Below are positions 41,427 to 60,084 of a stretch of DNA of 64,000 nucleotides, one piece after another. The first letter of the stretch is position 1. The number at the start of each line of letters is the position of its first letter. The notes under the pieces were generated by a model. That model saw nothing but the letters and a program-made list of their open reading frames with translations. It had not been told where the DNA came from and did no database searches. The position numbers were made by a program, and so were the translations under genes. This stretch comes from a virus (taxonomy: Duplodnaviria > Heunggongvirae > Uroviricota > Caudoviricetes), in the IMG/VR virus record IMGVR_UViG_3300031414_000001, positions 240,437 to 304,436 of that record, one strand, 5' to 3'.

Positions 41427-41438
41427 TGGGTAAATACT
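41427..41438 (+). promoter_or_regulatory. GGGTAAATAC motif (candidate late-type promoter) 33 nt upstream of first tagged gene
   Basis: gtGGGTAAATACtg. The same motif precedes genes at 47061, 48313, 59446 and (as GGTAAATTA) the SPFH gene. Confidence 0.4.
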
Positions 41439-41471
41439 GATAAGAATTTTTATTATAAGGAGATAAAAGGT

Positions 41472-43502
41472 ATGTTACCCTTTCCAATATTAAACTACTA
41501 TGGGAATAACATTGTACCTCCAGTAAAGACAATAGAAAGATTTTCAATATCCTCCAATGGTTCAGGAGTACTGTTACATTATGCTAATGGTGATTTATAT
41601 GCTTTAGGAACTAACACTGCTGGTAAGTTTGGTACAGGTGATACTACGAACATAACTGGTGCTTGGAGACTCATAGCTAGTAATGTACGTAAGTATGTAT
41701 GTTCTCATAACTTCACTATAATCATACACAATGATGGTTCAGTTCAGTACTCAGGCAATGTGAGTAATATTTTCACGTCAGCATTAGGATATTCATTTAG
41801 TACTACGAATGTGTTTACTGACATGAGTTCGGCGTTTAGTTCCTTTGATGTTCTAGGCATTAAGTCCTTAGAGTCTATGGAAGATTCAGGATATAGATTT
41901 TGGCTAATTGATAAGAATGATGTGTTATGGTGTATTGGTTCTAATCAGTACTACGCATTAGGTAGTTCTTCTAGTCTTACTACAACGAATTGGGTACAGG
42001 CAGTTAATGGTACTAATGTCGAAAGAGTTATGCCTGGATTACAATCAGTATGGATTAAGAAGAAAGATAATACGTACTGGAGAGCGGGAACTAATGCTTA
42101 TGGTTTATTAATGAGTAGTTCAGCTTCACAGACATATACGACATTTACTGTACAGAATTCATATGCCGGTACAGCGGCGAATAACACTATACGGAATCTA
42201 ACAGTAACTCCATACAACATGTATATGAATTTAGAAGACGGTTCAGTACGTATCTATGGTGTAAGAAACTCTGGTCAGACAGGTACAGGAAGCACAACTG
42301 GTACGGCATTGATTCCAGATAATCCATCGGGAACAAGTGGAGTTCTGAAGTTACTGGATAGTACTGGTTCGTTTTACAGTTCTTATTTGGTTGGGCCGAA
42401 TGGATTATTGGTAGCAGGTCAAGGTACTAATAACATGTTTGGTTTAGGTACGGGGGCATCTCCTACAACCTTTACGTTATCTAACACAGGTGTAATGACT
42501 AATTTAGATTATGCTAATTTAGATTACTTGAACTTCGTTACATCTAATGCTGGGTATGCTGTAATTGGTGGGGAAGTATATACTGCTGGTAATAGTGCTT
42601 ATACATTAGGTGCTACGTCATATATTACGTGGACATTGATGAATACACCACAGAGTCAGTTATGGGGAACATCAGGAATGGTTAGTACTATAACTAATGC
42701 TTCGACTACTTCTCCGACAATGACTAGATATTCTCACAGCAGATGTAGTTATGGAGATGATAAGTTCATTATCTATGGTGGATATAATGGTTCGACGATT
42801 TTTAATGATATTAACATTTACGATGGTACTACAGGAACGTGGAGTACTGTACCAGTGACGGGAACTACGAAGGCATTATTTGGTGCAGGTATTACTACTA
42901 TTGGTGATACGATGTATGTCTTTTGTGGTAACAGTACTACCTCGACTACGACGAACACGATTTATTCAGTTAATTTACTTACTGGAGATTGGACTACGAT
43001 TACGCCGAGTGGAAGTACTATAAGTGCTAGATCGCATGTACGGGCGTGTACTATAGGAACTATGATATACATATGGGGTGGTGAGAGTGTTAACACATGG
43101 TTCTCATTTAATCCGGTTACGAATGTAGTAGCTTCTATGCCTACATCGCCAGTAACATCTAGTATTGATGCGGATATGGTTACTGATGGTAAGGATATAT
43201 TTGTTAACATTGGTACTACGGCGTTTTACAAGTACAGTACTAGTAAAGCTGCTTGGATAGTACTAGCTAATAAGAATAATGCGGCATTGAAGCTCGCATA
43301 TAGTAATGGATATATCTATGGTTCTATGGCGGGGAATACATTCTTGTTCGCATATAAGGTCAGTACTAACATATGGACGCAATTACCTAATCCTTCATTG
43401 ATTAGTACTAGTCGTCATTGTTTAGCATCAGCGGCGGGTAAGGTTGTGTATACGGGTGGTATAGCTAGTACTAACAGCAATAACTGTTTTACAATAACAT
43501 AA
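41472..43502 (+). CDS. MLPFPxL-tagged RCC1-like + Kelch-like beta-propeller protein (676 aa)
   Basis: N-terminal tag MLPFPILNYYGN. RCC1-type GxNxxGxLGxG blades (GTNTAGKFGTGDTTN, GSNQYYALGSSSS). C-terminal Kelch-like blades (RYSHSRCSYGDDKFIIYGG, RSHVRACTIGTMIYIWGG). Confidence 0.75.
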   Translation: MLPFPILNYYGNNIVPPVKTIERFSISSNGSGVLLHYANGDLYALGTNTAGKFGTGDTTNITGAWRLIASNVRKYVCSHNFTIIIHNDGSVQYSGNVSNIFTSALGYSFSTTNVFTDMSSAFSSFDVLGIKSLESMEDSGYRFWLIDKNDVLWCIGSNQYYALGSSSSLTTTNWVQAVNGTNVERVMPGLQSVWIKKKDNTYWRAGTNAYGLLMSSSASQTYTTFTVQNSYAGTAANNTIRNLTVTPYNMYMNLEDGSVRIYGVRNSGQTGTGSTTGTALIPDNPSGTSGVLKLLDSTGSFYSSYLVGPNGLLVAGQGTNNMFGLGTGASPTTFTLSNTGVMTNLDYANLDYLNFVTSNAGYAVIGGEVYTAGNSAYTLGATSYITWTLMNTPQSQLWGTSGMVSTITNASTTSPTMTRYSHSRCSYGDDKFIIYGGYNGSTIFNDINIYDGTTGTWSTVPVTGTTKALFGAGITTIGDTMYVFCGNSTTSTTTNTIYSVNLLTGDWTTITPSGSTISARSHVRACTIGTMIYIWGGESVNTWFSFNPVTNVVASMPTSPVTSSIDADMVTDGKDIFVNIGTTAFYKYSTSKAAWIVLANKNNAALKLAYSNGYIYGSMAGNTFLFAYKVSTNIWTQLPNPSLISTSRHCLASAAGKVVYTGGIASTNSNNCFTIT

Positions 43503-43511
43503 GGAGAGAAT

Positions 43512-44612
43512 ATGTTACCATTTCCAATAATGAATCAGTACGGTAATGAAGTAGTTTATCCTGATGTGATAAAGAAGCTCAGTACTGGTCAGAACAACAC
43601 AGGGTTATTAAAAACTAATGGTGATTTTTACATACAAGGATTAAACAACGTAGGGCAAAGTGGTACAGGTAATACTAATGATGTAGTTAACTTTACTAAA
43701 GTGGATTCTGGTGTTGCTGATATTAGTGTAGGGTACAATACTTCCTTTTATAGAAAAGGTACTAACCAGATAATGGGTACTGGAGTTTTCAGTTATATAG
43801 ATGGAACAGTGCAAAAGAATACATGGACACAAATCAATTCATTGTTTACATCACTTAGTGTATCTTTTGAATTATTTTTAGATATAAGAACAAGTAGTTC
43901 AGGTTTGTTCGTATTGTACAATGGAAATTATTTGTACTGTCGTGGTTCAAATACAAATGGTGATTTAGGTGTTACTTCGAACACTAGTACTTGGTCATTA
44001 AGTGCTACTGATGTAAAGGAAGTTCATTGTGGGTATGAGTGTAGTTACATATTAAAGACTAATGGTGATTTATATGCTTCAGGTACTAACAGTAGGGGGC
44101 AATTAGGCACAGGTAATACTACTCGTTCAAATACTTGGATACTAATACAGCAGAATGTATTACAAGTTTATGCTGGTTTTTATAATCTAATCATTGCTAA
44201 GAGTGATGGGCTATATGGTGTAGGTGCTAGAGAGAATGGATTGTTAGGTGATGGTTATACCAGTTCAACAGCATCAAATCAATTAGGTTTTGTAAAATTG
44301 AATATTCCCAATGGAAGTTATAATTTAGGACGCGGTTTCATTTACAGTTCAGGAAACGCGGTACTGGATACTGGTGTTGCTTATGTATCTGGGGTTAATG
44401 CTGCGGTTGGTGGTGCTGGGGCGAATAATGGTTTATTCACACAAGCACAAGGAACATTACCAATGAACTTAAAAGGATTAAATTTAATGGCTAATGGTAT
44501 ATTAGTACATGATGGTACGGATATATGGGGTTCTGGTAATGGACGATTACTACCTGGATATGGTTCAGGAACTTATACAACCTTTGTAAAATGTACAATG
44601 CCAACTACATAA
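43512..44612 (+). CDS. MLPFPxL-tagged RCC1-like beta-propeller protein (366 aa)
   Basis: Tag MLPFPIMNQYGN. Repeats GLNNVGQSGTGNTN, GSNTNGDLGVTSN, GTNSRGQLGTGNTT, GARENGLLGDGYT. Coupled via TAAGGAGAGAAT-ATG. Confidence 0.75.
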   Translation: MLPFPIMNQYGNEVVYPDVIKKLSTGQNNTGLLKTNGDFYIQGLNNVGQSGTGNTNDVVNFTKVDSGVADISVGYNTSFYRKGTNQIMGTGVFSYIDGTVQKNTWTQINSLFTSLSVSFELFLDIRTSSSGLFVLYNGNYLYCRGSNTNGDLGVTSNTSTWSLSATDVKEVHCGYECSYILKTNGDLYASGTNSRGQLGTGNTTRSNTWILIQQNVLQVYAGFYNLIIAKSDGLYGVGARENGLLGDGYTSSTASNQLGFVKLNIPNGSYNLGRGFIYSSGNAVLDTGVAYVSGVNAAVGGAGANNGLFTQAQGTLPMNLKGLNLMANGILVHDGTDIWGSGNGRLLPGYGSGTYTTFVKCTMPTT

Positions 44613-44622
44613 GGAGAGACAG

Positions 44623-45129
44623 ATGTTACCTTTTACACAATTATTGGTTTATGGAAATACTGTAATTAGAAATGAATATAATATGTTTGTTTCTGAATTA
44701 ACTTCAAATAGTACAAATAAGTCCGTAGTTTATAATCAATCATACAGTGCTATAAATGGAACTACATATAATAGAGTTTATATGTATAGTACTGCTGCAC
44801 TATCAGGCACATTATGGGGAACACCATATGGTAATAAAATGACATGGGATAGTTCATTTTGTAGAGTTATACAACATGCGTTTCCTACCCAGGCATTATA
44901 TAGTGATTTTATTGCTAATCCTGGTAATCGAGTTGTATGTTTAGTTCGTTCAGCAACGGCGAGTGGGAGTGGGTATGTATCATTATCCAGAAATGGATAT
45001 ACAAGTTCATCATATGGATCATTTACTGGTTGTACTGTAACACAATTTATATATTTTGATCCTGTTACACAACGTGTTATGACATATAATCCTAGTACTG
45101 TTAGTACTCCAACATTTTATTACACATAA
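44623..45129 (+). CDS. MLPFxQL-tagged small protein (168 aa)
   Basis: Tag MLPFTQLLVYGN; TAAGGAGAGACAG-ATG coupling; no propeller repeats. Confidence 0.6.
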   Translation: MLPFTQLLVYGNTVIRNEYNMFVSELTSNSTNKSVVYNQSYSAINGTTYNRVYMYSTAALSGTLWGTPYGNKMTWDSSFCRVIQHAFPTQALYSDFIANPGNRVVCLVRSATASGSGYVSLSRNGYTSSSYGSFTGCTVTQFIYFDPVTQRVMTYNPSTVSTPTFYYT

Positions 45130-45140
45130 GGAGAGAATGG

Positions 45141-46307
45141 ATGTTACCATTTCCACAATTATTAGATTACGGGAATACTGTTGCTCCACCAGCACCAATT
45201 AAAAAGATACAAACATATTCGAACTCAGTATATGTTTTAATGTCCTCTGGACAATTATATGTTCGTGGATTTAATAGTTCAGGTCAATTAGGTATAGGAA
45301 GTACAGCAACAGTAACCACATGGACATTGAGTACTATACTAGTAGATGATGTATGGGTTGGTGGTAGTGCGGCTTTAATACGTAAAATGGATGGTACTTA
45401 TCAATTCACTGGCAATAATACAAATGTAGGAAATGCTAATGGAACCAGTACTACAACATGGGCTACATGGACTGTTAAGAATACATTAACATCAGGAATA
45501 GTAGATATTGCTTTGAGTTCTCAAAGCATTAGTGTACTGTTAGAAGATGGAACTATTAAGTCGGCGGGTGTTGGTACTAATGGACAGTTAGGTAATAATA
45601 GCACAACAAACAATATAGCTGGTTCTTTTGTAAACAGTACTATACCGAGTGGTATTACACCTGTTTCATTACTGGCTGGTAATACGATGCATGGATTCAT
45701 TGGGAACAATGGTAAGTTGTATCATACTGGTATGGTTAATGCTACTAATACTGTTAGTCCCGGTACTACAACATATCTGGTATATACATTGAATCCAGCT
45801 ATTGGTACTAATACTGCTTTATCATACATGAATAACGCTAATGGATTAGCTATGGGTTTGATTAGAACTCCAGCTAATGTTGTTCGAATGTATTTTGGTG
45901 GTTCAAGAATATTTGGTCAAATGGCAGATGGGGTTAATGGGAACTTATCTAACATTAAAGCTTTTGGTGATTTTACTGGAACTCCATATCCATCAGGAAC
46001 TATTCTTGGTGTAAGTACTGGTTATTCGTATTATGCTCAGATGGTTATTACGAGTACTGGAATATTTGCGGCGGGTCGTAATACTGGAGATCAGTCTGGT
46101 GCTTTAAGTACTGGAATCGCATCAGAAGCATTGACCTATACAGCATGTGTATTACCATCTAGTTTTGATACTACTAATGCGAAAGTACATATGTGTTTAA
46201 GCAGAACGTACTTAACTGATGGTAATTATCTGTATAGTTCAGGTACATATGTTACTTATGGTGGTCCAAGTAGTACTACGTTTACATTAGATGATCCAAG
46301 ATTTTAA
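45141..46307 (+). CDS. MLPFPxL-tagged RCC1-like beta-propeller protein (388 aa)
   Basis: Tag MLPFPQLLDYGN; repeats GFNSSGQLGIGSTAT, GVGTNGQLGNNSTTNN. Confidence 0.7.
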   Translation: MLPFPQLLDYGNTVAPPAPIKKIQTYSNSVYVLMSSGQLYVRGFNSSGQLGIGSTATVTTWTLSTILVDDVWVGGSAALIRKMDGTYQFTGNNTNVGNANGTSTTTWATWTVKNTLTSGIVDIALSSQSISVLLEDGTIKSAGVGTNGQLGNNSTTNNIAGSFVNSTIPSGITPVSLLAGNTMHGFIGNNGKLYHTGMVNATNTVSPGTTTYLVYTLNPAIGTNTALSYMNNANGLAMGLIRTPANVVRMYFGGSRIFGQMADGVNGNLSNIKAFGDFTGTPYPSGTILGVSTGYSYYAQMVITSTGIFAAGRNTGDQSGALSTGIASEALTYTACVLPSSFDTTNAKVHMCLSRTYLTDGNYLYSSGTYVTYGGPSSTTFTLDDPRF

Positions 46308-46317
46308 GGAGAGAGAA

Positions 46318-46971
46318 ATGTTACCATTTCCACAATTAGTTCAGTACGGTAATGTTGTTCAGACCGCATTGATGGATATTGATTTTAATAATAGTACTGT
46401 TGGTAGTACTGTAATTACAGATATTGGTGGACATGTATTCACTAAGATTGGTACAGGTTCAGCGGTAGTAGTTAATGATGCTACAAAGGGGAATGTGATG
46501 CAATTCAGTGGTTCATCATATTTTACAACACCTATGGTTCAAAATATATCTTTAAGTAATTTACATTTCAAGATGCGATTAGTATTCAAGAGTACAGTGT
46601 CATCTGAGAACATGGTATTCAGTACTGGAGATTATTATTCTAGTGGTTCAATAGTAGGTGGTATATTGCTTACCTTATTCAATAACACTGGTTCTCAATT
46701 ATTCTGTACTACAACATCTGGTGTATTCACTCGTTGTCAATTCACATATGTAGTTAATACATGGAGAGATTTAACGATAGAATGGATACCTACAACAAAG
46801 ACAATGATTATACATGATAATGATTCTAACACTAACGTGTTTAGTGGTACTGTTCCTGGTGGATTTGGTGATGGTACACAATTTGCGATTGGTGCTAGTT
46901 ATGTTCGTGGGGCTGGTAATGCTAATTTCCAGGGACAAATACAAAAAATACGTATTGATGCTGTACTATAA
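46318..46971 (+). CDS. MLPFPxL-tagged ConA/LamG-like lectin-fold protein (217 aa)
   Basis: Real start at MLPFPQLVQYGN (the track ORF starts 27 nt earlier). C-terminal ...FAIGASYVRGAGNANFQGQIQKIRIDAVL resembles the LamG/ConA-like F.G.I.E.RI signature. Confidence 0.65.
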   Translation: MLPFPQLVQYGNVVQTALMDIDFNNSTVGSTVITDIGGHVFTKIGTGSAVVVNDATKGNVMQFSGSSYFTTPMVQNISLSNLHFKMRLVFKSTVSSENMVFSTGDYYSSGSIVGGILLTLFNNTGSQLFCTTTSGVFTRCQFTYVVNTWRDLTIEWIPTTKTMIIHDNDSNTNVFSGTVPGGFGDGTQFAIGASYVRGAGNANFQGQIQKIRIDAVL

Positions 46972-46983
46972 TAGTACTCAAAT

Positions 46984-47012
46984 AAAGCTCAACTTAGGTT
47001 GGGCTTTTATTA
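46984..47012 (+). terminator. rho-independent terminator (AGCUCAAC-UUAG-GUUGGGCU + U-tract)
   Basis: Hairpin followed by TTTTATTATTTT. The same CAAC-UUAG-GUUG hairpin type recurs at 48238 and 61806. Confidence 0.6.
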
Positions 47013-47060
47013 TTTTCGTGGGTAAATACTTAATTAATATTTTAAAAAAAGGAGTTTCTA

Positions 47061-48236
47061 ATGTTACCATTTCCAATATTAAATCAATACGGTAATGAAG
47101 TAGAAGTGCCAGTAGTAAAGTTTACAACATCTGAATATAGTTCAACCTATTCTATTCTTAAGAATGGTGTTCTATATTTGAGTGGGGATAACTCAATGTA
47201 TCAGATGGGTGATGGTACAACCACTAACAAATATAATACATGGATTAAAAGAACTGAAACAGAGGAAATAATAGCTTGTAGTACTGGTTATCGTCAAACA
47301 GTATATGTTACTAAAACTGGACGAGTTATGTTAACTGGCACAGATATAACAGTGAATCCTAATGTGGTTCGAACATCGTGGTATAATATCACATCAGTAC
47401 TAGCAAGTGCTATAGATACAAGTGCTATCAAATACATTAGCATAGATCGTAATGGTTTATTAGCTATTCTTACAGATGGTACAGTATGGGGTACTGGTAC
47501 TGATAATAGTGGATGGATGGGAACTGGTTCAATACCTTCAGCGTTCTTATCAATGCGTCAGATACATCCAGGTCCAGCAGTAGCATGTACAGCGGGTACA
47601 GGTGTAGCTCGAATAGTACTACAAGATGGTACAATTTTAGGTTCAGGTAATAATACATCGTATCAAATAGACAGTACTGGAGTTAATATCAGCACCTTTA
47701 CTAATTCATTCCCTACAGTAGATCCTAGTACAATATATCAATTTAAACTTGGTAATAATAATTGTATTGTCTTTTTAAACAATGGAACATTTCATAGTAC
47801 TGGTATGGGTTCTTTTGGAGCATTAGGAAATAATAATACAGCTTCAACTGGCAATAATCAGTACTACACAGGAACATTATCATTTACTCCTGCTGATATG
47901 CGACAATATCGACATTTACAAGGTTCAAGTGCTAGTGGATGGTCATTAGTATTATCAAGCACAAATGAAATGTATGGTTGTGGTTATAATGGTGGAAATT
48001 TAGTATCTAACAGTGTACACTATGGTGTGTTTACTAAATGTGTACAAACGAGTACATATCCTAATATGATGTTTTTATCTGGTTCAGGAAACACAGTACT
48101 GATAAATCCATATCTAATTTCTCCTACTTCAGTACAACTTATTGCCAGTTCTCCTAAAGCTACAAGTCCATATGCTCAATCATTAACACCAGCATTAGGG
48201 CTTACTACTGCTGTTACGGTTACATTACCAACATAA
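47061..48236 (+). CDS. MLPFPxL-tagged RCC1-like beta-propeller protein (391 aa)
   Basis: Tag MLPFPILNQYGN; repeats GDNSMYQMGDGTTTN, GTDNSGWMGTGS, GMGSFGALGNNNTAS. Preceded by terminator + GGGTAAATAC motif (47030-47039). Confidence 0.7.
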   Translation: MLPFPILNQYGNEVEVPVVKFTTSEYSSTYSILKNGVLYLSGDNSMYQMGDGTTTNKYNTWIKRTETEEIIACSTGYRQTVYVTKTGRVMLTGTDITVNPNVVRTSWYNITSVLASAIDTSAIKYISIDRNGLLAILTDGTVWGTGTDNSGWMGTGSIPSAFLSMRQIHPGPAVACTAGTGVARIVLQDGTILGSGNNTSYQIDSTGVNISTFTNSFPTVDPSTIYQFKLGNNNCIVFLNNGTFHSTGMGSFGALGNNNTASTGNNQYYTGTLSFTPADMRQYRHLQGSSASGWSLVLSSTNEMYGCGYNGGNLVSNSVHYGVFTKCVQTSTYPNMMFLSGSGNTVLINPYLISPTSVQLIASSPKATSPYAQSLTPALGLTTAVTVTLPT

Positions 48237-48237
48237 G

Positions 48238-48268
48238 AAAAGGCTCGACTTAGGTCGGGCTTTTCTTG
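48238..48268 (+). terminator. rho-independent terminator (GGCUCGAC-UUAG-GUCGGGCU + U-tract)
   Basis: Hairpin then TTTTCTTGTTT; followed by the GGGTAAATAC motif at 48276-48285. Confidence 0.6.
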
Positions 48269-48312
48269 TTTAAGTGGGTAAATACAGTAATAAGATTCTA
48301 AAAGGGGGATTT

Positions 48313-50385
48313 ATGTTACCATTTCCACAATTAGTCGTGTATGGAAATACAGCTCCTATTCCAGGAATAGGAATAAAAAGAATGAGCAATACACAACAAG
48401 GTACTGCTCAGATGTTACAATATTCGAATGGTGAACTTTATGCTCTTGGTGCTAATACTAATGGTAAGTTCGGATATGGTGGTGCTGGTGGTGAGACTAT
48501 AACAACTTGGACACAGTTAAGTACTGGTGTTCGTTTATATTCACTAGCACAACAAACAATGATATTAATAATGAATGACGGTACTGTTAAAGGTAGTGGT
48601 TCATTAAATAATATCTTTAGTGCTGCTACAGGTGGTGCGATTGCGAACAGTACTTCATTAGTAGATATTACTGACAGGTACAGTACTTTTAATATCCCAG
48701 GTATTAAACAAATTGTTCAGTACGATACACAGGTTCGTCAATACTTGATTGATGAAAACAATCAGCTATGGGGAATGGGTACAAGAACTTCATATGTGTT
48801 AGGTAATAATACGAACAGTGGTAGTACTAGTTGGGTTCAGATTGATAATGGTGATAATTGTCAAGAGATACAATGTACGGCACAGGGATTATGGATCAAA
48901 AAGATTAATGGTACATGGTGGCGTTGTGGTACAAATGGTAGTGGTTGTTTAGTAGGTGCTGCGGCATCGACAACTTATACAACATTAACACAATTCACAG
49001 ATTTTGCTAACTTAGCAGATGTAAGTGTATTGAGTAGCAGTTTAATGATTAGATTAACTGATGGTACAATGCGTTTCTATGGTACACAGTACTGGATAAA
49101 CAGTGTTGGAGTTACTTTTACTCCGTATACCCCTACAGTTTCTGGTGTATTCGCTATGAATATTTCAGAAAGTTATCTAGGGAACTTCCAAGCAATAACA
49201 ACTCCTAATGGAATTATGGGAGAGGGTACTAATGGTGGCGGTTCATTAGGTATAGGTAATACTTCTAATGCATATGCTGGAACATGGTATGCAAGTATAG
49301 GGGTATTCACAGACCCATCAAATACCGCATTAGATACTTCTAAAATTAAATTCTTGTGCACAGGAAACAACTCAGGATTCTTTGCTTATGAAGATGAAGT
49401 ATATGTGAGTGGTTCAGTAGGATATACACAAAGTGGTGCTGCTAGTAATGGTTTCTGGCAAGTACAGAGAACTCCTAGAAGTGCTATCTGGTCAGCGGCA
49501 GATAATCATCCATTATTATCAGGTACAGTAACCAATCTCAGTTCCGCTTCACCTGTAATGAATAGATATGGACATGCTACAGCAGTATGGGGTAAAAAGC
49601 TATTAGTTAATGGTGGTATTATTAGTTCTTCCGCATTTGCTGATACGGGTGAAATTAATATCTATGATACAGAAACTGGATTATGGAGTTCTATAGCTAA
49701 TACTACATCTATCACTAGATACGCACATGCGATGTGTGTTATAGGTGATGTAGCTTATATTTGGGGTGGATATACTTCTCCTAGTGGTGGAACAAATACA
49801 AATACTATGTATTCTGTTAACTTGAATACGGGAGTATGGACAAATTTAGCTCCATCAAATAACATAACCTTTGGTGCTTATGCAAGAATGGTTAGTACTA
49901 ATGATGGTATGATCTATATGTGGGGTAGAGATATTGGTACACAAATGTATCAGTACAATCCAACCACAAATTCGTTTGTTACAAAAACATCATCAACGTT
50001 CGCTGCTGCTGGTCCTGGTGGTAGTGGTGTATCATTAACTAATGCTGCTGGTGCAGGTTTTTGTACTGATGGTACTTATATGTATAACTGTACTGCTGTA
50101 TCTCAAATGGCAAAATATGATCCAACATCAAATACATGGAAACAATATCAAAGTAAAACTACCGGGGCAGTTGGTAAATGTTCTTTCTTAAATGGTGTTC
50201 TGTACTGTATTATAAACAACACACTATATTCATATAGAATTAGTACTGGTGTATGGACAACCGGTGCGGCTTCATTAATGCCTGGTACAAGAAACGCTGC
50301 TTCAATGGAAGCAATAAATGGTGCTTTGTACTATATTGGTGGTCAAGGTACATCAAGTACTGATAATTTTTACAAGATTCAATAA
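48313..50385 (+). CDS. MLPFPxL-tagged RCC1-like + Kelch-like beta-propeller protein (690 aa)
   Basis: Real start MLPFPQLVVYGN after AAAGGGGGATTT RBS. RCC1 blades (GANTNGKFGYGGAGG) and Kelch blades (RYGHATAVWGKKLLVNGG, RYAHAMCVIGDVAYIWGG). Same architecture as 41472..43502. Confidence 0.75.
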   Translation: MLPFPQLVVYGNTAPIPGIGIKRMSNTQQGTAQMLQYSNGELYALGANTNGKFGYGGAGGETITTWTQLSTGVRLYSLAQQTMILIMNDGTVKGSGSLNNIFSAATGGAIANSTSLVDITDRYSTFNIPGIKQIVQYDTQVRQYLIDENNQLWGMGTRTSYVLGNNTNSGSTSWVQIDNGDNCQEIQCTAQGLWIKKINGTWWRCGTNGSGCLVGAAASTTYTTLTQFTDFANLADVSVLSSSLMIRLTDGTMRFYGTQYWINSVGVTFTPYTPTVSGVFAMNISESYLGNFQAITTPNGIMGEGTNGGGSLGIGNTSNAYAGTWYASIGVFTDPSNTALDTSKIKFLCTGNNSGFFAYEDEVYVSGSVGYTQSGAASNGFWQVQRTPRSAIWSAADNHPLLSGTVTNLSSASPVMNRYGHATAVWGKKLLVNGGIISSSAFADTGEINIYDTETGLWSSIANTTSITRYAHAMCVIGDVAYIWGGYTSPSGGTNTNTMYSVNLNTGVWTNLAPSNNITFGAYARMVSTNDGMIYMWGRDIGTQMYQYNPTTNSFVTKTSSTFAAAGPGGSGVSLTNAAGAGFCTDGTYMYNCTAVSQMAKYDPTSNTWKQYQSKTTGAVGKCSFLNGVLYCIINNTLYSYRISTGVWTTGAASLMPGTRNAASMEAINGALYYIGGQGTSSTDNFYKIQ

Positions 50386-50394
50386 GGAGAAAAC

Positions 50395-51054
50395 ATGTTA
50401 CCATTTCCACAATTGGTTGTATATGGAAATACTAGACCATCATATTCTGGTGTTCTTGTAATGCATGCTGACAATGGTTTTACCGATTTAGCATCTCCAT
50501 CGAGAACTATCAATAAATCAACAACAGCGTTAGTTACAAGTACTACTCAACATTTACCGGGTTTAGTATCGTCATACAATTGTACACTAGGATACATTAT
50601 TATTCCAGCAGCTAATATGGCTGATATGAATATTGGACAAAATACTGGTAATTTTACCGTTGAGTGGTTTTGTTATATAACTTCAATGGCTGGAACTCCT
50701 TGGTATATAAGTTCAGGAACAGGTACTACTAGTGATGTTAAAGTGTTTAGTAGTACTTTATATCTACAAAATAGAACAGGAGGTTCTAGTGTAGCAGTAA
50801 GTACTATTAACAACAGTACATATGTTGGTCGTTGGATACATTGTGCTTTAGTTCAAGATGGAACTACCGTTACTTGGTATATGAATGGGACCCGTATACT
50901 AACTGCTGCTGGTAGATGGGGAGATGTTAATACTCCATTGAGAATTGGCGGTTATGAAAATGTTTCAAATTCATATATTGATCAAATACGAATAACAAAT
51001 ACAGCATTATATTCTGGAGCTTCATTTGTAGCACCTGAATATCCGTTAGTTTAA
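50395..51054 (+). CDS. MLPFPxL-tagged ConA/LamG-like lectin-fold protein (219 aa)
   Basis: Tag MLPFPQLVVYGN; C-terminus YIDQIRITNTALYSGASFVAPEY (LamG-like). Confidence 0.65.
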   Translation: MLPFPQLVVYGNTRPSYSGVLVMHADNGFTDLASPSRTINKSTTALVTSTTQHLPGLVSSYNCTLGYIIIPAANMADMNIGQNTGNFTVEWFCYITSMAGTPWYISSGTGTTSDVKVFSSTLYLQNRTGGSSVAVSTINNSTYVGRWIHCALVQDGTTVTWYMNGTRILTAAGRWGDVNTPLRIGGYENVSNSYIDQIRITNTALYSGASFVAPEYPLV

Positions 51055-51069
51055 TTAAAGGAGAAAAAC

Positions 51070-51843
51070 ATGTTACCATTTCCACAATTAGTAAAGTACG
51101 GGAATGTTAGAGCACCAGAATGGTACACCGGTTCAGATGTTCTAATGGCGTTCGATTCTGTTAATTTTGTTCCTAGTACTGGATTTAACACAAATGGCTT
51201 TACTGATTATAAAGGTAAAGTAATGACTTCTGATGCTCAAAATACTGGTAAATTACCAGCTAAAGCTGATGGAACAAATAGTATCTTAAACACCTTTGGT
51301 TCATATGGTATTATATTATATGGATCAGGTATTGTAGCTGCTAATTCTCAAATACTACCATCATTAACACAACAAGATCATACGGTAGATTTCTGGTTTA
51401 GAAATACTACTACAGGTAATGCTAATCTTGAGATGGTTCCATTTATGTGGTATAATGTAATGGCTACAAATAATGATAAATGGTGTATGTGGGCTTATAT
51501 GAAAGATGGTCAGGGTCCAAGATTTACTAACAATAATAGTAATACATTAAGAACTTTATCATTATATTCCACCATGTACAACAATACAAACTGGAACCAT
51601 TATGCTTATGTATTTGTTAAATCTACTAATACTATATCTATATTTCTTAATGGAATCAAAGTAGATACATTTACTTATAATATCATTACTCCTGCTGCTG
51701 GTTCAAAATGTGGTATTGCTGGACATGTGAATAGTACTGATGCTAATGGAGGTAGCGGTGCTCACACAGCAATAGATCGATTCAGAATTCGAAATACAGC
51801 AGTATGGACAGCAAACTTCAACACTAGTACAATATACCCATAA
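51070..51843 (+). CDS. MLPFPxL-tagged ConA/LamG-like lectin-fold protein (257 aa)
   Basis: Tag MLPFPQLVKYGN; C-terminus AIDRFRIRNTAVWTANFNTS. Confidence 0.65.
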   Translation: MLPFPQLVKYGNVRAPEWYTGSDVLMAFDSVNFVPSTGFNTNGFTDYKGKVMTSDAQNTGKLPAKADGTNSILNTFGSYGIILYGSGIVAANSQILPSLTQQDHTVDFWFRNTTTGNANLEMVPFMWYNVMATNNDKWCMWAYMKDGQGPRFTNNNSNTLRTLSLYSTMYNNTNWNHYAYVFVKSTNTISIFLNGIKVDTFTYNIITPAAGSKCGIAGHVNSTDANGGSGAHTAIDRFRIRNTAVWTANFNTSTIYP

Positions 51844-51853
51844 GGAGATAAAG

Positions 51854-52480
51854 ATGTTACCATTTCCAATTATAAACAAATTAACAGAACGTCCATCAGA
51901 AAATACTATTATTACATTTCTTAAAACTGGTGGAACTCTTACAAAAACTAATATAAATGAATCTCCTAATGATTTTTTCACAGAATCATATAACGCAATT
52001 CAATTCAATTCAGGATCAGCAAATATTCAAGTAGGTTCAGGTGGGATTCCTGCTATATGGCAAATAGGGAACAGTACTAACTTCCGCATTGAAACATACG
52101 TAAAGCTTTCAAATACTGGAACTAAAATACTATGTGGTAATCTTCAGAACAATGGTACTGGTTCATGGTGGATGGTATTAAACAATGTCTTTCAGAACAG
52201 TACAGCAGTTGCTTTAGATGGATTTAGTACTACTGGTGCTGTACAACGTTTCCATTTCACTGGAATGACAACATTACCAATTAATGTATGGAATCATATT
52301 GTGCTTGAACGTATAGGAAGTACTATAACATGTTATATCAATGGAACATCTATTGGTTCATTAACTATGACATTGGGTTTCCAGACACATTCAAACGCAT
52401 TTAGAGTAGGCGACAGTACTGACAATGCTTATAGCTTTAATGGTATTATAGATAGTTTCAAAATGACAATGAATGCATAA
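51854..52480 (+). CDS. MLPFPxL-tagged jelly-roll-like protein (208 aa)
   Basis: Tag MLPFPIINKL (divergent); C-terminal FNGIIDSFKM. Confidence 0.6.
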   Translation: MLPFPIINKLTERPSENTIITFLKTGGTLTKTNINESPNDFFTESYNAIQFNSGSANIQVGSGGIPAIWQIGNSTNFRIETYVKLSNTGTKILCGNLQNNGTGSWWMVLNNVFQNSTAVALDGFSTTGAVQRFHFTGMTTLPINVWNHIVLERIGSTITCYINGTSIGSLTMTLGFQTHSNAFRVGDSTDNAYSFNGIIDSFKMTMNA

Positions 52481-52490
52481 GGAGATTAAT

Positions 52491-53654
52491 ATGCTACCAT
52501 TTCCAATTATAAGTCAGTTAACAATACAACCTGCTAAGCCAACAATACAAGCATTAAACTTTGTTGCGAGTGGCGTGTATCTGTTATACAGTACTGGAGA
52601 GTTATTTTTTAGAGGTCGAGGAAATTCAGGTTATAAAGGCGATGGAACAAATACCGCTGCTCAATATAATTCATGGAATCCATCTAATACTAATGTTATC
52701 ATGGTTAGTACTGGCCCTGGCCCTGGTGTAGTAATTAAGAATGATGGTACTTATTGGACTACAGCAAGTTCTAATTATATGGGAATAAGTACTGGTTACG
52801 TTCAGTATAAATGGTCTGATTGTACTTCTAAATTCACAGCAATTACTAGCAATCCTGGTAATATTAAGCAAATAGTTTCTACTGGTGGTGGAGTTTTTGT
52901 TCTATTGTATTCAGGAGAACTGTATGCTATTGGTACTAATTCTAATGGTTGTTTAGGTTTAGGTACATCAACGTCTTACTCAGTAACTAACTTCACATTA
53001 GTTGGTACTAACGTAAAGAAAATAAGTGCTAGTTCTAATCACGCAATGTATATTAATAATAACAATACTCTATTCAGTACTGGATATAATATCATTGGAC
53101 AATTAGGTAATAATAGTACTACTACAGGAATATCATTTACTCAACTATCAGCAGGGCAATTAACAGCTTATCCATTTGTTCAGGATGTTGTATGTATTTC
53201 TAACAGTACTGTTGTTATTTCTAGACAAACTGCGGAATCAGCAAATATAATGTTAGCATGTGGTGCAGCATTATATTCAGGTACAGGAACAACGAGTGGT
53301 GGATATACTACATTTGTATACATTGGTACAATGAGTGGTACTACAGCTAGAGTTAATGCGTTGAGTTCAACTATGGGTTCAGCCAATAACAATATGATAA
53401 TGACAGAGAAAGGATTATATGCTATTGGTTCAGGACAATATTATCAGCTAGGTAATGGCAATGCTAATGATGTGTCAGTATGGACAGCAGTTCAAAGTTT
53501 ACCAACTACAGATTACAGTACGATCAAGTTTTTTGGTTCGAGTTCAGAAGGTTCTGCCTTTGTTTACCTGGACAAAGTTTACATTTTTGGTGTTTCTGGT
53601 CAATGGGGAACAAGTAGATCCTTACCAACGTTATCAACCGATACACCATATTAA
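52491..53654 (+). CDS. MLPFPxL-tagged RCC1-like beta-propeller protein (387 aa)
   Basis: Real start MLPFPIISQL after AAGGAGATTAAT. Repeats GTNSNGCLGLGTSTS, GYNIIGQLGNNSTTTG. Confidence 0.7.
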   Translation: MLPFPIISQLTIQPAKPTIQALNFVASGVYLLYSTGELFFRGRGNSGYKGDGTNTAAQYNSWNPSNTNVIMVSTGPGPGVVIKNDGTYWTTASSNYMGISTGYVQYKWSDCTSKFTAITSNPGNIKQIVSTGGGVFVLLYSGELYAIGTNSNGCLGLGTSTSYSVTNFTLVGTNVKKISASSNHAMYINNNNTLFSTGYNIIGQLGNNSTTTGISFTQLSAGQLTAYPFVQDVVCISNSTVVISRQTAESANIMLACGAALYSGTGTTSGGYTTFVYIGTMSGTTARVNALSSTMGSANNNMIMTEKGLYAIGSGQYYQLGNGNANDVSVWTAVQSLPTTDYSTIKFFGSSSEGSAFVYLDKVYIFGVSGQWGTSRSLPTLSTDTPY

Positions 53655-53661: not shown

Positions 53662-53692
53662 AAAAAAACCCGCCTTGAGCGGGTTTTTTTGT
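53662..53692. terminator. bidirectional rho-independent terminator between convergent genes (A7-CCCGCcuugaGCGGG-T7)
   Basis: Perfect 5-bp GC stem flanked by A7 and T7 between the + cluster end (53654) and the - gene end (53694). Confidence 0.7.
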
Positions 53693-55277: not shown

Positions 55278-55676
55278 TTACTCAGAGTCCGTCAAGGACT
55301 TTTTACGAGCTTTTTCTTCCCGCCGTGCTATGCTAGTATTACGAAGTGTAGTTAATCCTTTCACCAGTACTGCGAACACAGCAAGGAGAACAATATAACC
55401 AATACACATAGAACCGAACAGATTAGCCATGATTACAAAGAACATGGAACCAGTCAATACTTCCATCACCTTACACAAACAACCAATAATTGTCAGTAAG
55501 ATAATAGGTGAAGTTGCTTCCAGTGGGATGTAATTACCCAGGAAGTTAATCATACGATTGAAGGTATCGCTGACTTTATCATAGCCGAATGACCAATCAA
55601 CTGCGAACAGTACAGCAATACCAATCCAGAACCAGGTATACACACTGGCAATGGTTTCTAGAACAGGATGAAACAT
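55278..55676 (-). CDS. integral membrane protein (132 aa), basic C-terminus
   Basis: Four hydrophobic helices; C-terminal RREEKARKKSL. Confidence 0.5.
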   Translation of the reverse strand: MFHPVLETIASVYTWFWIGIAVLFAVDWSFGYDKVSDTFNRMINFLGNYIPLEATSPIILLTIIGCLCKVMEVLTGSMFFVIMANLFGSMCIGYIVLLAVFAVLVKGLTTLRNTSIARREEKARKKSLTDSE

Positions 55677-56026
55677 TATTTTTTACCTCGTTTTGATAAA
55701 CACCAATCCCTGATACATGATAAGAATGCCAGGAACATACATACACCAACTACCAGTACTACAATACATAACCACAGAGTCCAGATAGCATAGAAGAATG
55801 CCACTGGTGGAGCTACAGCACCCCATAGTAAGAATGGGATAGTAAGTATTACTGACAGTACTACATGGACAATACAAGTACCTACAGCATCATCTGTATC
55901 AAAGAATTGTTCTTCTAAGAAGTCATATAGATCAGTTCCTAGAGTCCACAGTACTAATACGATGACAGCCATTACCATGATGATATATGACGGCACAGGT
56001 GCGTAAGTCAAGAACAAATTATACAT
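55676..56026 (-). CDS. small membrane protein paralog A (116 aa, ...CLSKRGKK)
   Basis: 3 TM helices, GTDLYDFLEEQFF loop, basic C-terminal tail. Confidence 0.55.
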   Translation of the reverse strand: MYNLFLTYAPVPSYIIMVMAVIVLVLWTLGTDLYDFLEEQFFDTDDAVGTCIVHVVLSVILTIPFLLWGAVAPPVAFFYAIWTLWLCIVVLVVGVCMFLAFLSCIRDWCLSKRGKK

Positions 56027-56370
56027 TAGATTTTACCTCGTTTCGCTAAGCACCATGCGTTGAATGAATGTAATAAATGGCGAACTAAGCGAACACTGTA
56101 CATGAACAGTATGATTGAACACCATAAGTTGAACGCAGCCCAGCCATAGATAAGATTTTCAGTGAAGATAAGCCCAAAGGCATTAATAACTAATACCCAC
56201 CAGAAGTAGATCTTCATGAAGTCTAAGGAGTTCCACCATAACTTCTTGAAGCGATCATACCAGTCAGTACCGAACAGCCACATCATGTATACTAACAAGG
56301 TCAGTACTACATATACAGCAGAAGGGTAGTAGATGTATGGTTGTACGAAAGTCCAGATTGATTCAATCAT
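56026..56370 (-). CDS. small membrane protein paralog B (114 aa, ...CLAKRGKI)
   Basis: Same topology; GTDWYDRFKKLWW loop. Confidence 0.55.
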   Translation of the reverse strand: MIESIWTFVQPYIYYPSAVYVVLTLLVYMMWLFGTDWYDRFKKLWWNSLDFMKIYFWWVLVINAFGLIFTENLIYGWAAFNLWCSIILFMYSVRLVRHLLHSFNAWCLAKRGKI

Positions 56371-56705
56371 ATGCGGCGTCCTCGTTTATCTGCGAAGTAC
56401 TGACGAAGATCCATAATCTTACCATGAATAAAGATGGCTAAAGTTATGATTAGTACAATAGTGAAATAGCCTAAGTGGACATAAGGGGCTTTCCCAAATC
56501 CATCAAATGTTAGTCCGATTACTATTGAGGCAATACTAATACCTATGCTGAATAATACATGCATGAACAACGGTAGTCCTTCCGCAAATTTAGCACTACT
56601 ATAGTAATAGTCAGCACAGGTTAACCACCCAATACCAATTACTACTAATGAAGCTATATTCAGGAATAAACAAACCAGTTCAAGTACTTCAAAGATGTTT
56701 GTCAT
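56367..56705 (-). CDS. small membrane protein paralog C (112 aa, ...FADKRGRRI)
   Basis: LTCADYYYSSAKF loop, basic tail. Confidence 0.55.
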   Translation of the reverse strand: MTNIFEVLELVCLFLNIASLVVIGIGWLTCADYYYSSAKFAEGLPLFMHVLFSIGISIASIVIGLTFDGFGKAPYVHLGYFTIVLIITLAIFIHGKIMDLRQYFADKRGRRI

Positions 56706-57559: not shown

Positions 57560-57898
57560 TTAACGACCACGTTTAGACCAGAAATACTTCCTGGACGTTT
57601 CGAACCAATTGAAAAGATTGAATGCGACAAACAGAACAATTAAGATCATGTTTATCACGCCTACAATACCATATGCGAAGTTATGTGTAAACTCAGCACT
57701 CCTGGCCTGAGTGACAGCACCTAAGCCCATAATAAAGATCCAGAAGAACCACGCAATAGCATTACAAATTGCGAGAACACCGACGAAATCTTTATTCAGT
57801 TTAAAGTAGTAGTTAGCACCTGTCCAGTACCCGACGAGGGCAACAATCAGAAATGCTAATACTACGAATGCCAGTACTACACAGATTTCAATAAACAT
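57560..57898 (-). CDS. small membrane protein paralog D (112 aa, ...FWSKRGR)
   Basis: WTGANYYFKLNKDF loop, basic tail. Confidence 0.55.
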   Translation of the reverse strand: MFIEICVVLAFVVLAFLIVALVGYWTGANYYFKLNKDFVGVLAICNAIAWFFWIFIMGLGAVTQARSAEFTHNFAYGIVGVINMILIVLFVAFNLFNWFETSRKYFWSKRGR

Positions 57899-58236
57899 TA
57901 CAGTTTACCCCGCTTTTTGCCGAAGTACTCTTTCAGTTCACCGAAACCATAATAACATCCGAAGCAAACAATCACCACGTACATTAGCAATGATACGCCA
58001 GTACACCACATTAAACCGTAGCGAAAGCCTTTCTCGATGCTTTGTTCAACTAAACTGACGAGTGCCATGTTTACCAGGAAACACATCGCCTGAATACCGA
58101 TAGCAAGTTTTAACATTTGCTTCGTATCAGATTCCAGTTTAGTATAATAGTCGGCGTATGTCAAGTTCCCGACGAGATAAATTATTGAGATCGCGACCCA
58201 CACAAACAAGTTGATAGGGGCTAAAATGTCGTACAT
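57898..58236 (-). CDS. small membrane protein paralog E (112 aa, ...FGKKRGKL)
   Basis: LTYADYYTKLESD loop, basic tail. Confidence 0.55.
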   Translation of the reverse strand: MYDILAPINLFVWVAISIIYLVGNLTYADYYTKLESDTKQMLKLAIGIQAMCFLVNMALVSLVEQSIEKGFRYGLMWCTGVSLLMYVVIVCFGCYYGFGELKEYFGKKRGKL

Positions 58237-58238
58237 AG

Positions 58239-58574
58239 TTACACCACCTTATTACGTTTACGTCCGAAATACTGACGAATGCCACCTGAATGACGCACGA
58301 ACAGTACTACAGCACCAATTGTTAATACCCATGAACATACGCAGCTAATACCAACGTACATTTCCCAGGGACTGATTTTTTTTGCGGCATCAGGTAAAGC
58401 AGCAGCGAATATCACGAAGGATATTACAGTGGCTACTAATGAAAGTAGTTTGTAATCACTGATGAAACTATCTGAGAACTTATCATAGTAATCAGCATAA
58501 GTTAAGTAACCAATGTACAGTACTACAACTGACACTAACCAAATGTGTGTGACAATTAATCCATAGAGTTCCAT
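58239..58574 (-). CDS. small membrane protein paralog F (111 aa, ...FGRKRNKVV)
   Basis: LTYADYYDKFSDS loop, basic tail. Confidence 0.55.
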   Translation of the reverse strand: MELYGLIVTHIWLVSVVVLYIGYLTYADYYDKFSDSFISDYKLLSLVATVISFVIFAAALPDAAKKISPWEMYVGISCVCSWVLTIGAVVLFVRHSGGIRQYFGRKRNKVV

Positions 58575-58583
58575 ACAATCCCC

Positions 58584-59372: not shown

Positions 59373-59412
59373 TTAACGCAACCATTATAGCAGACAGAAA
59401 CTGGCGATGCAA

Positions 59413-59422
59413 GGGTAAATAC
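59413..59422 (+). promoter_or_regulatory. GGGTAAATAC motif 23 nt upstream of the tagged gene at 59446
   Basis: caaGGGTAAATACgtaaaaac. Confidence 0.4.
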
Positions 59423-59445
59423 GTAAAAACAAGAGGATTTTTTAC

Positions 59446-60084
59446 ATGCTACCATTTCCACAACTGTTCACATACGGGAACACGATAGAAACAGCACCTG
59501 TTTTTTTAATGACAGACTTTTTAACAACGGCTGATATTAAAGATAAAGGTCCATATTCAATACCAGTAACTAATAATGGTAACATTCCTGTCGGGGCTGA
59601 CGCATACGGAACTTATATGAATTTTACAGGTCTAACAACTCAATGGTTAGAATTTGCTTCAACCAATTTGAATATAGGTGAAGCTGAAATTCGTGTTAAA
59701 CTATCAAACTTCCAATATAGAAACACGATGTATCAAAATGTTATTTTAGATGGTAGACCATATCAAACAAATGGTCCATATTTAAATTTCGCTTATACAT
59801 CAAATGTTACAGCACCATTCCAGGTTTATGCGAACTACAATTCAAGCCAAACATTATATTCTGGAACAATTAATGCTGCTTCATACCCAATAGAAGTTAT
59901 ATTAAAAATCAGAACTACAGGAACTTCTATTTTAATTAATGGTGTTCAAGTTGCTAGTTCTTCTAATACTATTAATTTTGTTAATCAACAATTCAAAGTT
60001 GGGAGAAATGCTTTTATTGCTACTGCTGCTGTTCCATATCTATATGCTAAAGTATATCATTTAGAGATCAGAAAATACCTATAA
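59446..60084 (+). CDS. MLPFPxL-tagged jelly-roll/lectin-like protein (212 aa), orphan copy outside main array
   Basis: Tag MLPFPQLFTYGN; C-terminal LYAKVYHLEIRKYL. Confidence 0.65.
   Translation: MLPFPQLFTYGNTIETAPVFLMTDFLTTADIKDKGPYSIPVTNNGNIPVGADAYGTYMNFTGLTTQWLEFASTNLNIGEAEIRVKLSNFQYRNTMYQNVILDGRPYQTNGPYLNFAYTSNVTAPFQVYANYNSSQTLYSGTINAASYPIEVILKIRTTGTSILINGVQVASSSNTINFVNQQFKVGRNAFIATAAVPYLYAKVYHLEIRKYL

Follow-up and report, generated by a model that had tools for sequence, protein, structure and literature searches.

A 64,000-nucleotide stretch of the IMG/VR virus record IMGVR_UViG_3300031414_000001 (positions 240,437 to 304,436 of that record; hereafter the window) holds twelve plus-strand open reading frames (ORFs) whose products begin with the same short peptide, MLPF, which we call the tag. 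Eleven of these genes are consecutive (41472-53654) and the twelfth is an orphan copy at 59446-60084; we name each gene by its first position in the window (Table 1). The corresponding DNA pattern, ATGYTNCCNTTY (ATG-YTN-CCN-TTY), has 13 matches in the window where 0.62 would be expected; shuffled sequences never held more than two. We set aside the thirteenth match, at 38827, as a chance hit: it opens a frame of 20 codons that lies antisense to another gene. Every tagged start is preceded by an AGGAG-type ribosome-binding site 6 to 9 nt upstream (12/12), and the tag ATG is the true start of 46318 and 48313 as well, where the mechanical ORF calls (46291 and 48274, from an upstream ATG or GTG) are too long. 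The original prediction for this locus, made from the sequence alone, described an invariant 12-residue tag on twelve genes. The shared N-terminal peptide is real, but only its first four residues are invariant: in an alignment of the first 60 residues, M1-L2-P3-F4 is present in 12 of 12 proteins and P5 in 11 of 12, while the rest varies. Ten genes carry a long form, MLPFx[QI]ΦxxYGN, that ends in Y10-G11-N12, whereas in 51854 and 52491 the tag takes a short form, MLPFPII[NS][KQ]L.

The bodies behind the tag are diverse. The tagged proteins range from 168 to 690 amino acids, as first described, and their bodies share 25 to 33% identity among the propellers, are barely detectable as relatives among the lectins, and cannot be aligned across groups. 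The conserved unit is thus the tag and not the domain, which was the central point of the original prediction. Its assignment of the cargo to diversified propellers and lectins also holds, based on Pfam, AlphaFold, Foldseek, and profile comparison: there are six RCC1 propellers, two of them with an added Kelch propeller, and five ConA/LamG-like proteins, and the twelfth body is a phrog_6409 domain (44623). Pfam RCC1 or RCC1_2 matches exceed the cut-off in 43512, 45141, 47061, and 52491, and 41472 has RCC1-like-domain matches; 48313 is assigned to the same group through its 33% identity to 41472 over 700 columns. The Kelch propellers of 41472 and 48313 are recognized by Pfam, and the nearest solved structures to the propeller of 45141 are HERC2, RPGR, and UVR8. 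Laminin_G_3 exceeds the Pfam cut-off in 50395, 51070, and 51854. The remaining two lectin-like proteins, 46318 and 59446, have no Pfam match; both belong to PHROG 6011, annotated as "virion structural protein," and an hhalign comparison of that family with the Laminin_G_3 group gives a probability of 89.5%. A homolog of the 46318 type in Serratia phage PCH45 does exceed the Laminin_G_3 Pfam cut-off. Carbohydrate binding may be a role of these Laminin_G_3 and ConA-like bodies.

Structure prediction was most informative for the orphan gene. The AlphaFold model of 59446, built from an alignment of 29 sequences, is a β-sandwich with a predicted local distance difference test score (pLDDT) of 85.7 and a predicted template modeling (pTM) score of 0.83. 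In the PDB, Foldseek matches it best to two domains: the HCN domain, a lectin-like jelly roll in the binding domains of clostridial neurotoxins, and a carbohydrate-binding domain of the arabinanase AbnA (template modeling scores of 0.6 to 0.69, E values of ∼1e-7). Residues 1 to 15 are modeled as coil, with a mean pLDDT of 56 over the first 10, so that in this protein, the sole one whose body has a confident model, the tag is predicted to lie outside the fold. In the other tagged proteins, Pfam matches begin after the tag. We considered whether the N terminus might instead supply a strand that closes a propeller in "velcro" fashion and rejected the idea: the tag is also found on lectin folds, the RCC1-like Pfam matches start past residue 19, and the model shows the tag as coil. 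The model of 44623 has a pLDDT of 45 (shallow alignment, 13 close sequences), too low for a fold to be assigned; domains of its type occur without the MLPF tag in chimalliviruses and also as the C-terminal domain of SPN3US gp154.

The composition of the twelve proteins sets them apart from the rest of the window. Ser, Thr, Asn, and Gly together make up 42% of their residues versus 23% in the other window proteins, and Lys and Arg together make up 4.9% versus 10.8%. The RCC1-type members, with 4 to 5% Lys plus Arg and isoelectric points of 6.3 to 8.5, are of the kind that databases label "DNA condensation protein." Their composition argues against DNA binding, and the label appears to reflect the fold name only.

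Amid minus-strand genes, the tagged cluster stands out as a plus-strand island whose GC skew is positive, and its promoters and terminators can be tentatively placed. A late-promoter-like motif, GGGTAAATAC, occurs four times in the 64 kb against 0.08 expected, each time 24 to 35 nt upstream of a tagged gene, and there are four terminator-like hairpins with T-runs, of which one is bidirectional. From the positions of these elements, we divide the genes into four transcription units with 5, 1, 5, and 1 tagged genes (Table 1). In the related phage CBB, the authors of its genome derived a "promoter 3" class, xTAAATAx, from the regions upstream of structural genes; this class includes GTAAATAC upstream of CBB_552 and CBB_553, and GGGTAAATAC matches it. 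We therefore read the GGGTAAATAC motifs as putative late promoters, by analogy with CBB.

Table 1. Tagged genes and putative transcription signals in the window
Feature	Position	Strand	Evidence or remark
Late-promoter-like GGGTAAATAC, unit 1	41428..41437	+	35 nt before first tagged gene
Tagged gene, 676 amino acids: MLPFPILNYYGN, RCC1-like propeller, Kelch propeller	41472..43502	+	Pfam Kelch_KLHDC2 3e-30, WD40_RLD 2e-17; phrog_4219 1e-49
Tagged gene, 366 amino acids: MLPFPIMNQYGN, RCC1 propeller	43512..44612	+	Pfam RCC1_2 41.9 bits, RCC1 27.4 bits, above cut-off
Tagged gene, 168 amino acids: MLPFTQLLVYGN, phrog_6409 domain	44623..45129	+	phrog_6409 2e-30; no Pfam match
Tagged gene, 388 amino acids: MLPFPQLLDYGN, RCC1 propeller	45141..46307	+	Pfam RCC1 28.6 bits, RCC1_2 27.6 bits
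Tagged gene, 217 amino acids: MLPFPQLVQYGN, ConA/LamG-like domain (phrog_6011)	46318..46971	+	phrog_6011 "virion structural protein" 1.5e-50
Intrinsic-terminator-like hairpin, end of unit 1	46984..47007	+	Sequence
Late-promoter-like GGGTAAATAC, unit 2	47020..47029	+	Motif
Tagged gene, 391 amino acids: MLPFPILNQYGN, RCC1-like propeller	47061..48236	+	Pfam WD40_RLD 8e-19, RCC1_2 22.3 bits
Terminator-like hairpin, end of unit 2	48239..48264	+	Sequence
Late-promoter-like GGGTAAATAC, unit 3	48276..48285	+	Motif
Tagged gene, 690 amino acids: MLPFPQLVVYGN, RCC1-like propeller, Kelch propeller	48313..50385	+	Pfam Kelch families; 33% identity to 41472 product
Tagged gene, 219 amino acids: MLPFPQLVVYGN, Laminin_G_3	50395..51054	+	Pfam 39.2 bits vs cut-off 27.6
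Tagged gene, 257 amino acids: MLPFPQLVKYGN, Laminin_G_3	51070..51843	+	Pfam 30.7 bits
Tagged gene, 208 amino acids: short tag MLPFPIINKL, Laminin_G_3	51854..52480	+	Pfam 46.4 bits
Tagged gene, 387 amino acids: short tag MLPFPIISQL, RCC1 propeller	52491..53654	+	Pfam RCC1 48.2 bits
Bidirectional terminator-like hairpin, end of unit 3	53662..53690	.	Sequence
Late-promoter-like GGGTAAATAC, unit 4	59413..59422	+	Motif
Orphan tagged gene, 212 amino acids: MLPFPQLFTYGN, ConA-like jelly roll (phrog_6011)	59446..60084	+	AlphaFold, Foldseek
Terminator-like hairpin, end of unit 4	60085..60109	+	Sequence

The original prediction pointed to related phage genomes and to purified virions as the places to look for the tag; it is found in the former and, at least from residue 7 onward, in virions of relatives. 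The window comes from one of the Rak2-like jumbo myoviruses: it shares ∼87% identity with both Xanthomonas phage XbC2 and Erwinia phage Kaldavass, and more distant kin are GAP32, CBB, BF, fHe-Yen9-04, and the 121Q/phAPEC6 group. Kaldavass has 8 tagged genes and phAPEC6 has ∼11, with the tag in the form MLPF[AG]RM[VIL]KYGN, and the short tag, which is also that of 52491, heads 7 RCC1 genes in Serratia phage BF. Loci from ∼10 Rak2-like genomes gave a census of at least 83 tagged genes. Across these 83, residues 1, 3, and 4 are invariant and L2 is kept in 82, while Y10 is found in 66, G11 in 63, and N12 in 65, the remainder being mostly short-form tags. The codons for these residues are mixed: Pro3 is encoded by CCA (54), CCT (25), CCC (2), and CCG (2), Tyr10 by TAC (48) and TAT (18), and Gly11 by GGG (28), GGA (25), GGT (9), and GGC (1). 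Because synonymous sites vary freely in the tag codons, the tag is under selection at the peptide level.

How far does the tag extend beyond these phages? We searched IMG/VR with degenerate DNA patterns, in one scan for the long tag and one for the short tag, and the true matches were confined to Rak2-like contigs of 348 to 378 kb. Six small-contig matches in the long-tag scan were dropped as chance or internal. So were ∼40 single small-contig matches in the short-tag scan, which come from an unrelated internal frame of 26 codons, MFPFPIITIKP…, that has no ribosome-binding site. Among the lineages scanned, the tag is thus restricted to the Rak2-like phages. We found no mention of it in the literature searched, including a full-text query for "MLPF" with "jumbo phage"; the tag appears to be undescribed, while the underlying principle of a short docking peptide is already known.

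The variable part of the tag carries information of its own. At positions 5 to 9, pairs of tagged proteins with equally divergent bodies (20 to 30% identity) share 65% identity when both come from one genome versus 26% when they come from different genomes, and orthologs with 60 to 100% body identity in different genomes share 47.5%. These positions track the genome and not the body, which fits coevolution with a single partner in each genome. Within some genomes, gene conversion may add to the likeness of tags; in phAPEC6, the upstream regions of the paralogs, with promoter and ribosome-binding site, are near-identical as well as the tag. In the window, however, both the upstream regions and the synonymous sites differ between copies, and for this reason gene conversion is an insufficient explanation there.

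Published mass spectrometry (MS) of CBB, phAPEC6, and GAP32 virions, which we mapped onto the tagged genes, shows that tag-bearing proteins are part of the particle in all three relatives. CBB encodes 11 proteins that start with MLPF (CBB_144, 247, 536, 537, 548, 549, 550, 551, 552, 553, and 554), and nine of them, all except CBB_550 and CBB_554, were detected in virions with 2 to 8 unique peptides and 9.5 to 51% coverage. All six entries on the CBB authors' list of proteins "MS completely unique to CBB" (CBB_144, 247, 536, 537, 551, and 552) are tagged, and for none of the tagged CBB proteins does their table list a RaK2 homolog. The same authors consider the proteins absent from GAP32 to be candidates for the whiskers of the CBB tail. 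In phAPEC6, which has hair-like fibers on capsid and tail, gp003, 005, 006, 007, 009, and 010 are all tagged and were all seen in virions. In GAP32, gp001, gp530, and gp531 were detected; gp001 and gp002 start with MLPF by direct reading, and we count gp530 and gp531 as tagged by homology to the tagged CBB_548 and CBB_549. Several of these proteins correspond to genes in the window: CBB virions contain an ortholog of 50395 (CBB_548) and two of 59446 (CBB_536 and CBB_537), and a tagged, MS-detected protein of the CBB_247 type is a relative of the 51070 product.

The CBB peptide report also bears on the fate of the tag itself. It contains LFEYANVIIPPNYK, which is residues 7 to 20 of CBB_536 and follows Arg6, and LLQYGNK, which is residues 7 to 13 of CBB_553. 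Recovery of these peptides shows that the tag, at least from residue 7 onward, is still on the mature virion protein. Two of the tagged CBB genes stand alone. CBB_144 (KU574722, 75120-75884), whose glycine-rich body is unlike any in the window, is a single tagged cassette between the genes for anaerobic ribonucleotide reductase and its activase, and CBB_247 (KU574722, 173132-173866) is one between the genes for a recombination endonuclease and endonuclease VII. Both sit within unrelated modules and look like mobile units of promoter, tag, and cargo.

A second jumbo phage lineage carries the same cargo families behind a different tag. Chimalliviruses (the nucleus-forming, phiKZ-like phages) have homologs of the 44623, 50395, and 59446 bodies, and the alignments begin past the tag. 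Over the whole genome of Serratia phage PCH45, 8 to 9 annotated proteins begin with MLE[TNSA][ILM]L; the tagged starts are at 2666, 4339, 6239c, 34531, 111272, and 116633c, with variant tags at 117332c (a GTG start), 70971c, and 72264c. Their bodies include one Kelch propeller, three Laminin_G_3 domains, homologs of the 59446, 46318, and 44623 types, and three without a Pfam match. Two proteins of phage RAY, gp282 and gp283, begin with MLE[LM]LM, the lectin homolog of pEa_SNUABM_48 begins with MLETLL, and two metagenomic homologs begin with MLE[MI][ML]T. In AD1 and PVP-SE1, by contrast, the homologs lack a leader of the MLE type. We found no description of the PCH45 tag in the literature searched. 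That two unrelated lineages place different peptides on the same pool of propellers and lectins is the strongest argument for a modular, lineage-specific attachment element.

The tagged genes thus lie behind late-type promoters, and tag-bearing proteins reach the virions of relatives with at least residues 7 onward attached. It is tempting to see in the tag a means of attachment, and the explanation we favor, with a probability of roughly 0.55, is that it is a docking peptide, particular to the lineage and kept on the mature protein, through which exchangeable adhesin domains are loaded onto the virion at one shared site. The twelve genes would then be late-expressed accessory virion proteins in cassette form. 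Each cassette would comprise a late promoter or a position in an operon, a ribosome-binding site, a flexible and retained N-terminal peptide (M-L-P-F-x-Φ-Φ-x-x-Y-G-N or the short MLPFPIIS), a linker of 5 to 10 residues, and a globular binding domain, which may be a propeller (RCC1 and/or Kelch), a lectin fold of the ConA/LamG type, or the 150-residue phrog_6409 domain. The free N terminus and the hydrophobic and aromatic residues of the peptide would plug into a single docking site on a Rak2-like structural protein, so that varied binding domains could be mounted on one scaffold and swapped by recombination without the need for a new attachment domain. The mounted domains would most likely serve as accessory adhesins for glycans or proteins of the host surface, and the tagged proteins may sit on or with the hair-like fibers of the CBB and phAPEC6 capsid and tail. 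From the combined evidence we infer that the tag docks, that all members share one partner, that they lie on the outside, and that they act as adhesins. The structural module of the phage is located outside the window; by phyletic pattern, candidate partners are the structural proteins of CBB and GAP32 without a RaK2 homolog (CBB_029, 118, 183, 225, 226, 321, and 534).

By analogy, the known mechanism that fits best is that of the conserved N-terminal docking peptides of secondary receptor-binding proteins, and of the comparisons offered in the original prediction, the one with the adaptors of multi-receptor-binding-protein phages has fared best. In K1E, K1-5, and SP6, the conserved peptides are 7 and 11 residues long, and the Klebsiella KP32- and KP34-like phages have "MALxxLV"; these peptides dock onto a T4gp10-like branching domain (PMC6872550), and engineering showed that they are required for incorporation (PMC13352976). 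As in our set, the peptides are short (7 to 12 residues), hydrophobic, at the extreme N terminus, and retained in the particle. They are conserved within a phage group and different between groups, they sit on exchanged, unrelated virion proteins, and they allow several specificities on one scaffold. The differences lie mainly in the cargo. In the known systems, a phage usually has one or two proteins with such a peptide, and these are trimeric β-helix tailspikes or depolymerases docked on the T4gp10-like branching domain, whereas here 8 to 12 small, apparently monomeric propeller or lectin proteins are encoded per jumbo myovirus genome, and the peptide sequences are unrelated.

Other jumbo phages offer partial parallels. 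Paralog family B of SPN3US (PMC5694885) is likewise a very large family of low-abundance virion proteins with variable C-terminal domains, and its member gp154 carries a domain of the 44623 type, in an alignment that covers residues 47 to 167 of 44623. Family B (n = 20, head associated), however, shares an N-terminal domain of ∼150 amino acids, whereas the Rak2-like set shares a 12-residue peptide. The β-propellers of phiKZ gp131 and SPN3US gp168-170, which are baseplate or fiber proteins, also form paralog families at the virion periphery (PMC5105663 and PMC5694885). The descriptions in those papers on which our comparison is based give sizes of 135 to 188 kDa and long N-terminal regions, and they report no short common tag. 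Outside phages, encapsulin cargo-loading peptides are a case in which a short conserved terminal peptide sends unrelated cargo to an HK97-fold shell. There the peptide is mostly found at the C terminus, the cargo is housed inside, and no phage virion is involved, so the likeness is one of analogy only.

It is also conceivable, and in our view rather unlikely, that the tag is an uncleaved capsid-targeting signal that binds the scaffold, the core, or the inner capsid, so that the cargo is packaged in the head as an inner body or as ejected effectors. The T4 internal proteins IPI to IPIII and Alt provide the precedent: they too share a short N-terminal leader, of ∼10 residues, on diverse cargo that reaches the virion. 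The authors of the phAPEC6 study proposed RCC1-like proteins as candidates for the inner-body rod of that phage, and the phrog_6409 domain is found in SPN3US gp154, a member of family B that was seen in tailless particles and annotated "head ejection?" The analogy with T4, which formed part of the original prediction, holds for the short shared leader, but it fails at the processing step, as had been anticipated there. The tag lacks the L/I-x-E site of the prohead protease: Glu is absent from residues 1 to 12 of all 12 window tags, and in the census of 83 it occurs only at variable position 9, never in an L/I-x-E that closes the leader. The CBB data show no removal of the tag from residue 7 on. 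Moreover, the cargo folds and composition resemble those of surface adhesins, with low charge (4.9% Lys plus Arg) and high Ser, Thr, Asn, and Gly, unlike DNA-associated internal proteins, and in other phages, proteins with lectin and propeller folds, like their relatives in PHROG, have annotations as tail, baseplate, or virion surface proteins. The SPN3US "head" category also includes the outer surface.

We regard as quite unlikely an alternative in which the tag is an assembly handle, either read by a dedicated phage chaperone during folding of β-rich proteins or used by paralogs to form mixed oligomers through their tags. This would suit a hydrophobic and aromatic peptide that is disordered in the monomer model and present on β-rich proteins of three folds, and Rak2-like phages do encode tail-fiber assembly factors. 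However, a chaperone handle need not stay in the virion nor occupy the exact N terminus, 12 residues are few for a stable oligomerization element, and the homologous bodies of AD1 and PVP-SE1 do without such a tag. If, instead, the tag had no role as a protein, the like 5' ends could be a translation-initiation or recombination module maintained by duplication and gene conversion. The tandem arrays, the near-identical promoter, ribosome-binding site, and tag of the phAPEC6 paralogs, and the homogenization of variable tag positions inside genomes are what such a module would produce. The original prediction had named a nucleotide-level constraint as its alternative, and the synonymous-site pattern largely refutes it: the third codon positions of P3, Y10, and G11 are free while the residues are fixed, both across genera and in the window. 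Upstream regions differ within the window, Y-G-N lies 28 to 36 nt into the gene, past the initiation region, and a second lineage evolved another peptide on the same cargos. We consider this explanation very improbable. Hardly any credence is due to a last candidate, an N-terminal stability signal read, for example, by a ClpS-like adaptor of the Rak2-like phages. CBB_319 is, by its supplement annotation, a ClpS-family protein, and it is encoded beside a structural gene; the tag must be at the extreme N terminus, with Leu at residue 2 and Phe at residue 4. Met-Leu is not cut by methionine aminopeptidase (PMC10052503), however, so Leu would stay unexposed; the tagged proteins accumulate in virions, and chimalliviruses use another tag.

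Several points weigh against the docking-peptide explanation itself. The virion evidence comes entirely from relatives, and MS gives association with the particle, not location within it. SPN3US gp154, whose domain homologous to 44623 is the one with a mapped location, was head associated in a tailless mutant and provisionally assigned to "head ejection?" (PMC5694885), so that a place in the head, outer or inner, is possible for the Rak2-like proteins as well. The likeness of tags within a genome could be due in part to gene conversion, given the near-identical upstream regions in phAPEC6. The known docking peptides carry trimeric tailspikes, whereas the present cargos look monomeric. Finally, the link to hairs is correlative: GAP32 has tagged genes, and hairs are unreported for it.

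If the tag is a docking peptide, it would offer a minimal handle for protein display on very large phages or for their retargeting. A testable structural role would replace the misleading "DNA condensation" or "RCC1 protein" label on dozens of jumbo phage genes. One signature would then mark accessory virion proteins in Rak2-like genomes, including all six that separate the hairy CBB from GAP32, and the origin and decoration of the hairs on these phages, a long-open matter, would become directly testable. More broadly, the results suggest that the short docking peptide, so far described for tailspikes in small podoviruses and in a few myoviruses, is a general device to which at least two jumbo lineages have come independently. 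A wider reading, which we offer as possible rather than probable, is that unrelated jumbo lineages load a horizontally traded pool of lectins and propellers onto a common scaffold through lineage-specific peptides (MLPF…YGN and MLExLL), and that the hairs of CBB and phAPEC6 are this scaffold or are decorated by the tagged proteins. Each particle would then bear a mixed, rapidly evolvable coat of adhesins, and a tag of 12 residues would suffice for mounting a foreign protein on it.

The sequence around the tagged genes has features of its own. An HNH endonuclease gene (60113-61111, minus strand) adjoins the orphan tagged gene, and a gene for a T4 denV-type pyrimidine-dimer glycosylase (Pyr_excise, 2e-16) follows at 62289-62723 on the minus strand. 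The original prediction had set this denV beside that of T4, which is next to the internal-protein genes. The gene is indeed there, 2.2 kb from the orphan, but its position is not evidence for a shared arrangement: Kaldavass has denV at the same place and no orphan copy, and we treat the synteny as a coincidence. Between the eleven-gene cluster and the orphan, a DUF1190 lipoprotein-like gene is located at 54208-54867.

Upstream of the cluster, positions 39440 to 41427, which separate the minus-strand block from the tagged operon, form a region of ∼2 kb without an ORF of 80 or more amino acids. It holds a 55-nt imperfect inverted repeat (40078-40210) and 11 copies of the 8-bp palindrome CAGTACTG; a tandem array of CCRTCTAG-like units with a period of 8 bp is found at 40361-40496. 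No tRNA genes or Rfam families were found in the 64-kb window, this region included. The palindrome occurs 65 times in the 64 kb against ∼1 expected, most densely at 39772-41261, and it is enriched outside long ORFs, which hold 39 of the 65 copies though they make up 78% of the window. The core of the palindrome, AGTACT, is about as abundant in every Rak2-like locus we retrieved (e.g., 161 copies in 35 kb of Kaldavass); the other phages sampled, chimalliviruses among them, essentially lack it. Across the copies, there is no consensus past the octamer. Candidate roles for CAGTACTG are binding by a protein, methylation, or formation of a hairpin.

Six paralogous membrane proteins of ∼112 amino acids have their genes on the minus strand in two tandem blocks, 55676-56705 and 57560-58574. 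Their homologs in Kaldavass and CBB are annotated only as "membrane protein." All six window paralogs end in a basic …[FL]xxKRG[KR], so that they form a second family with a common terminal peptide.

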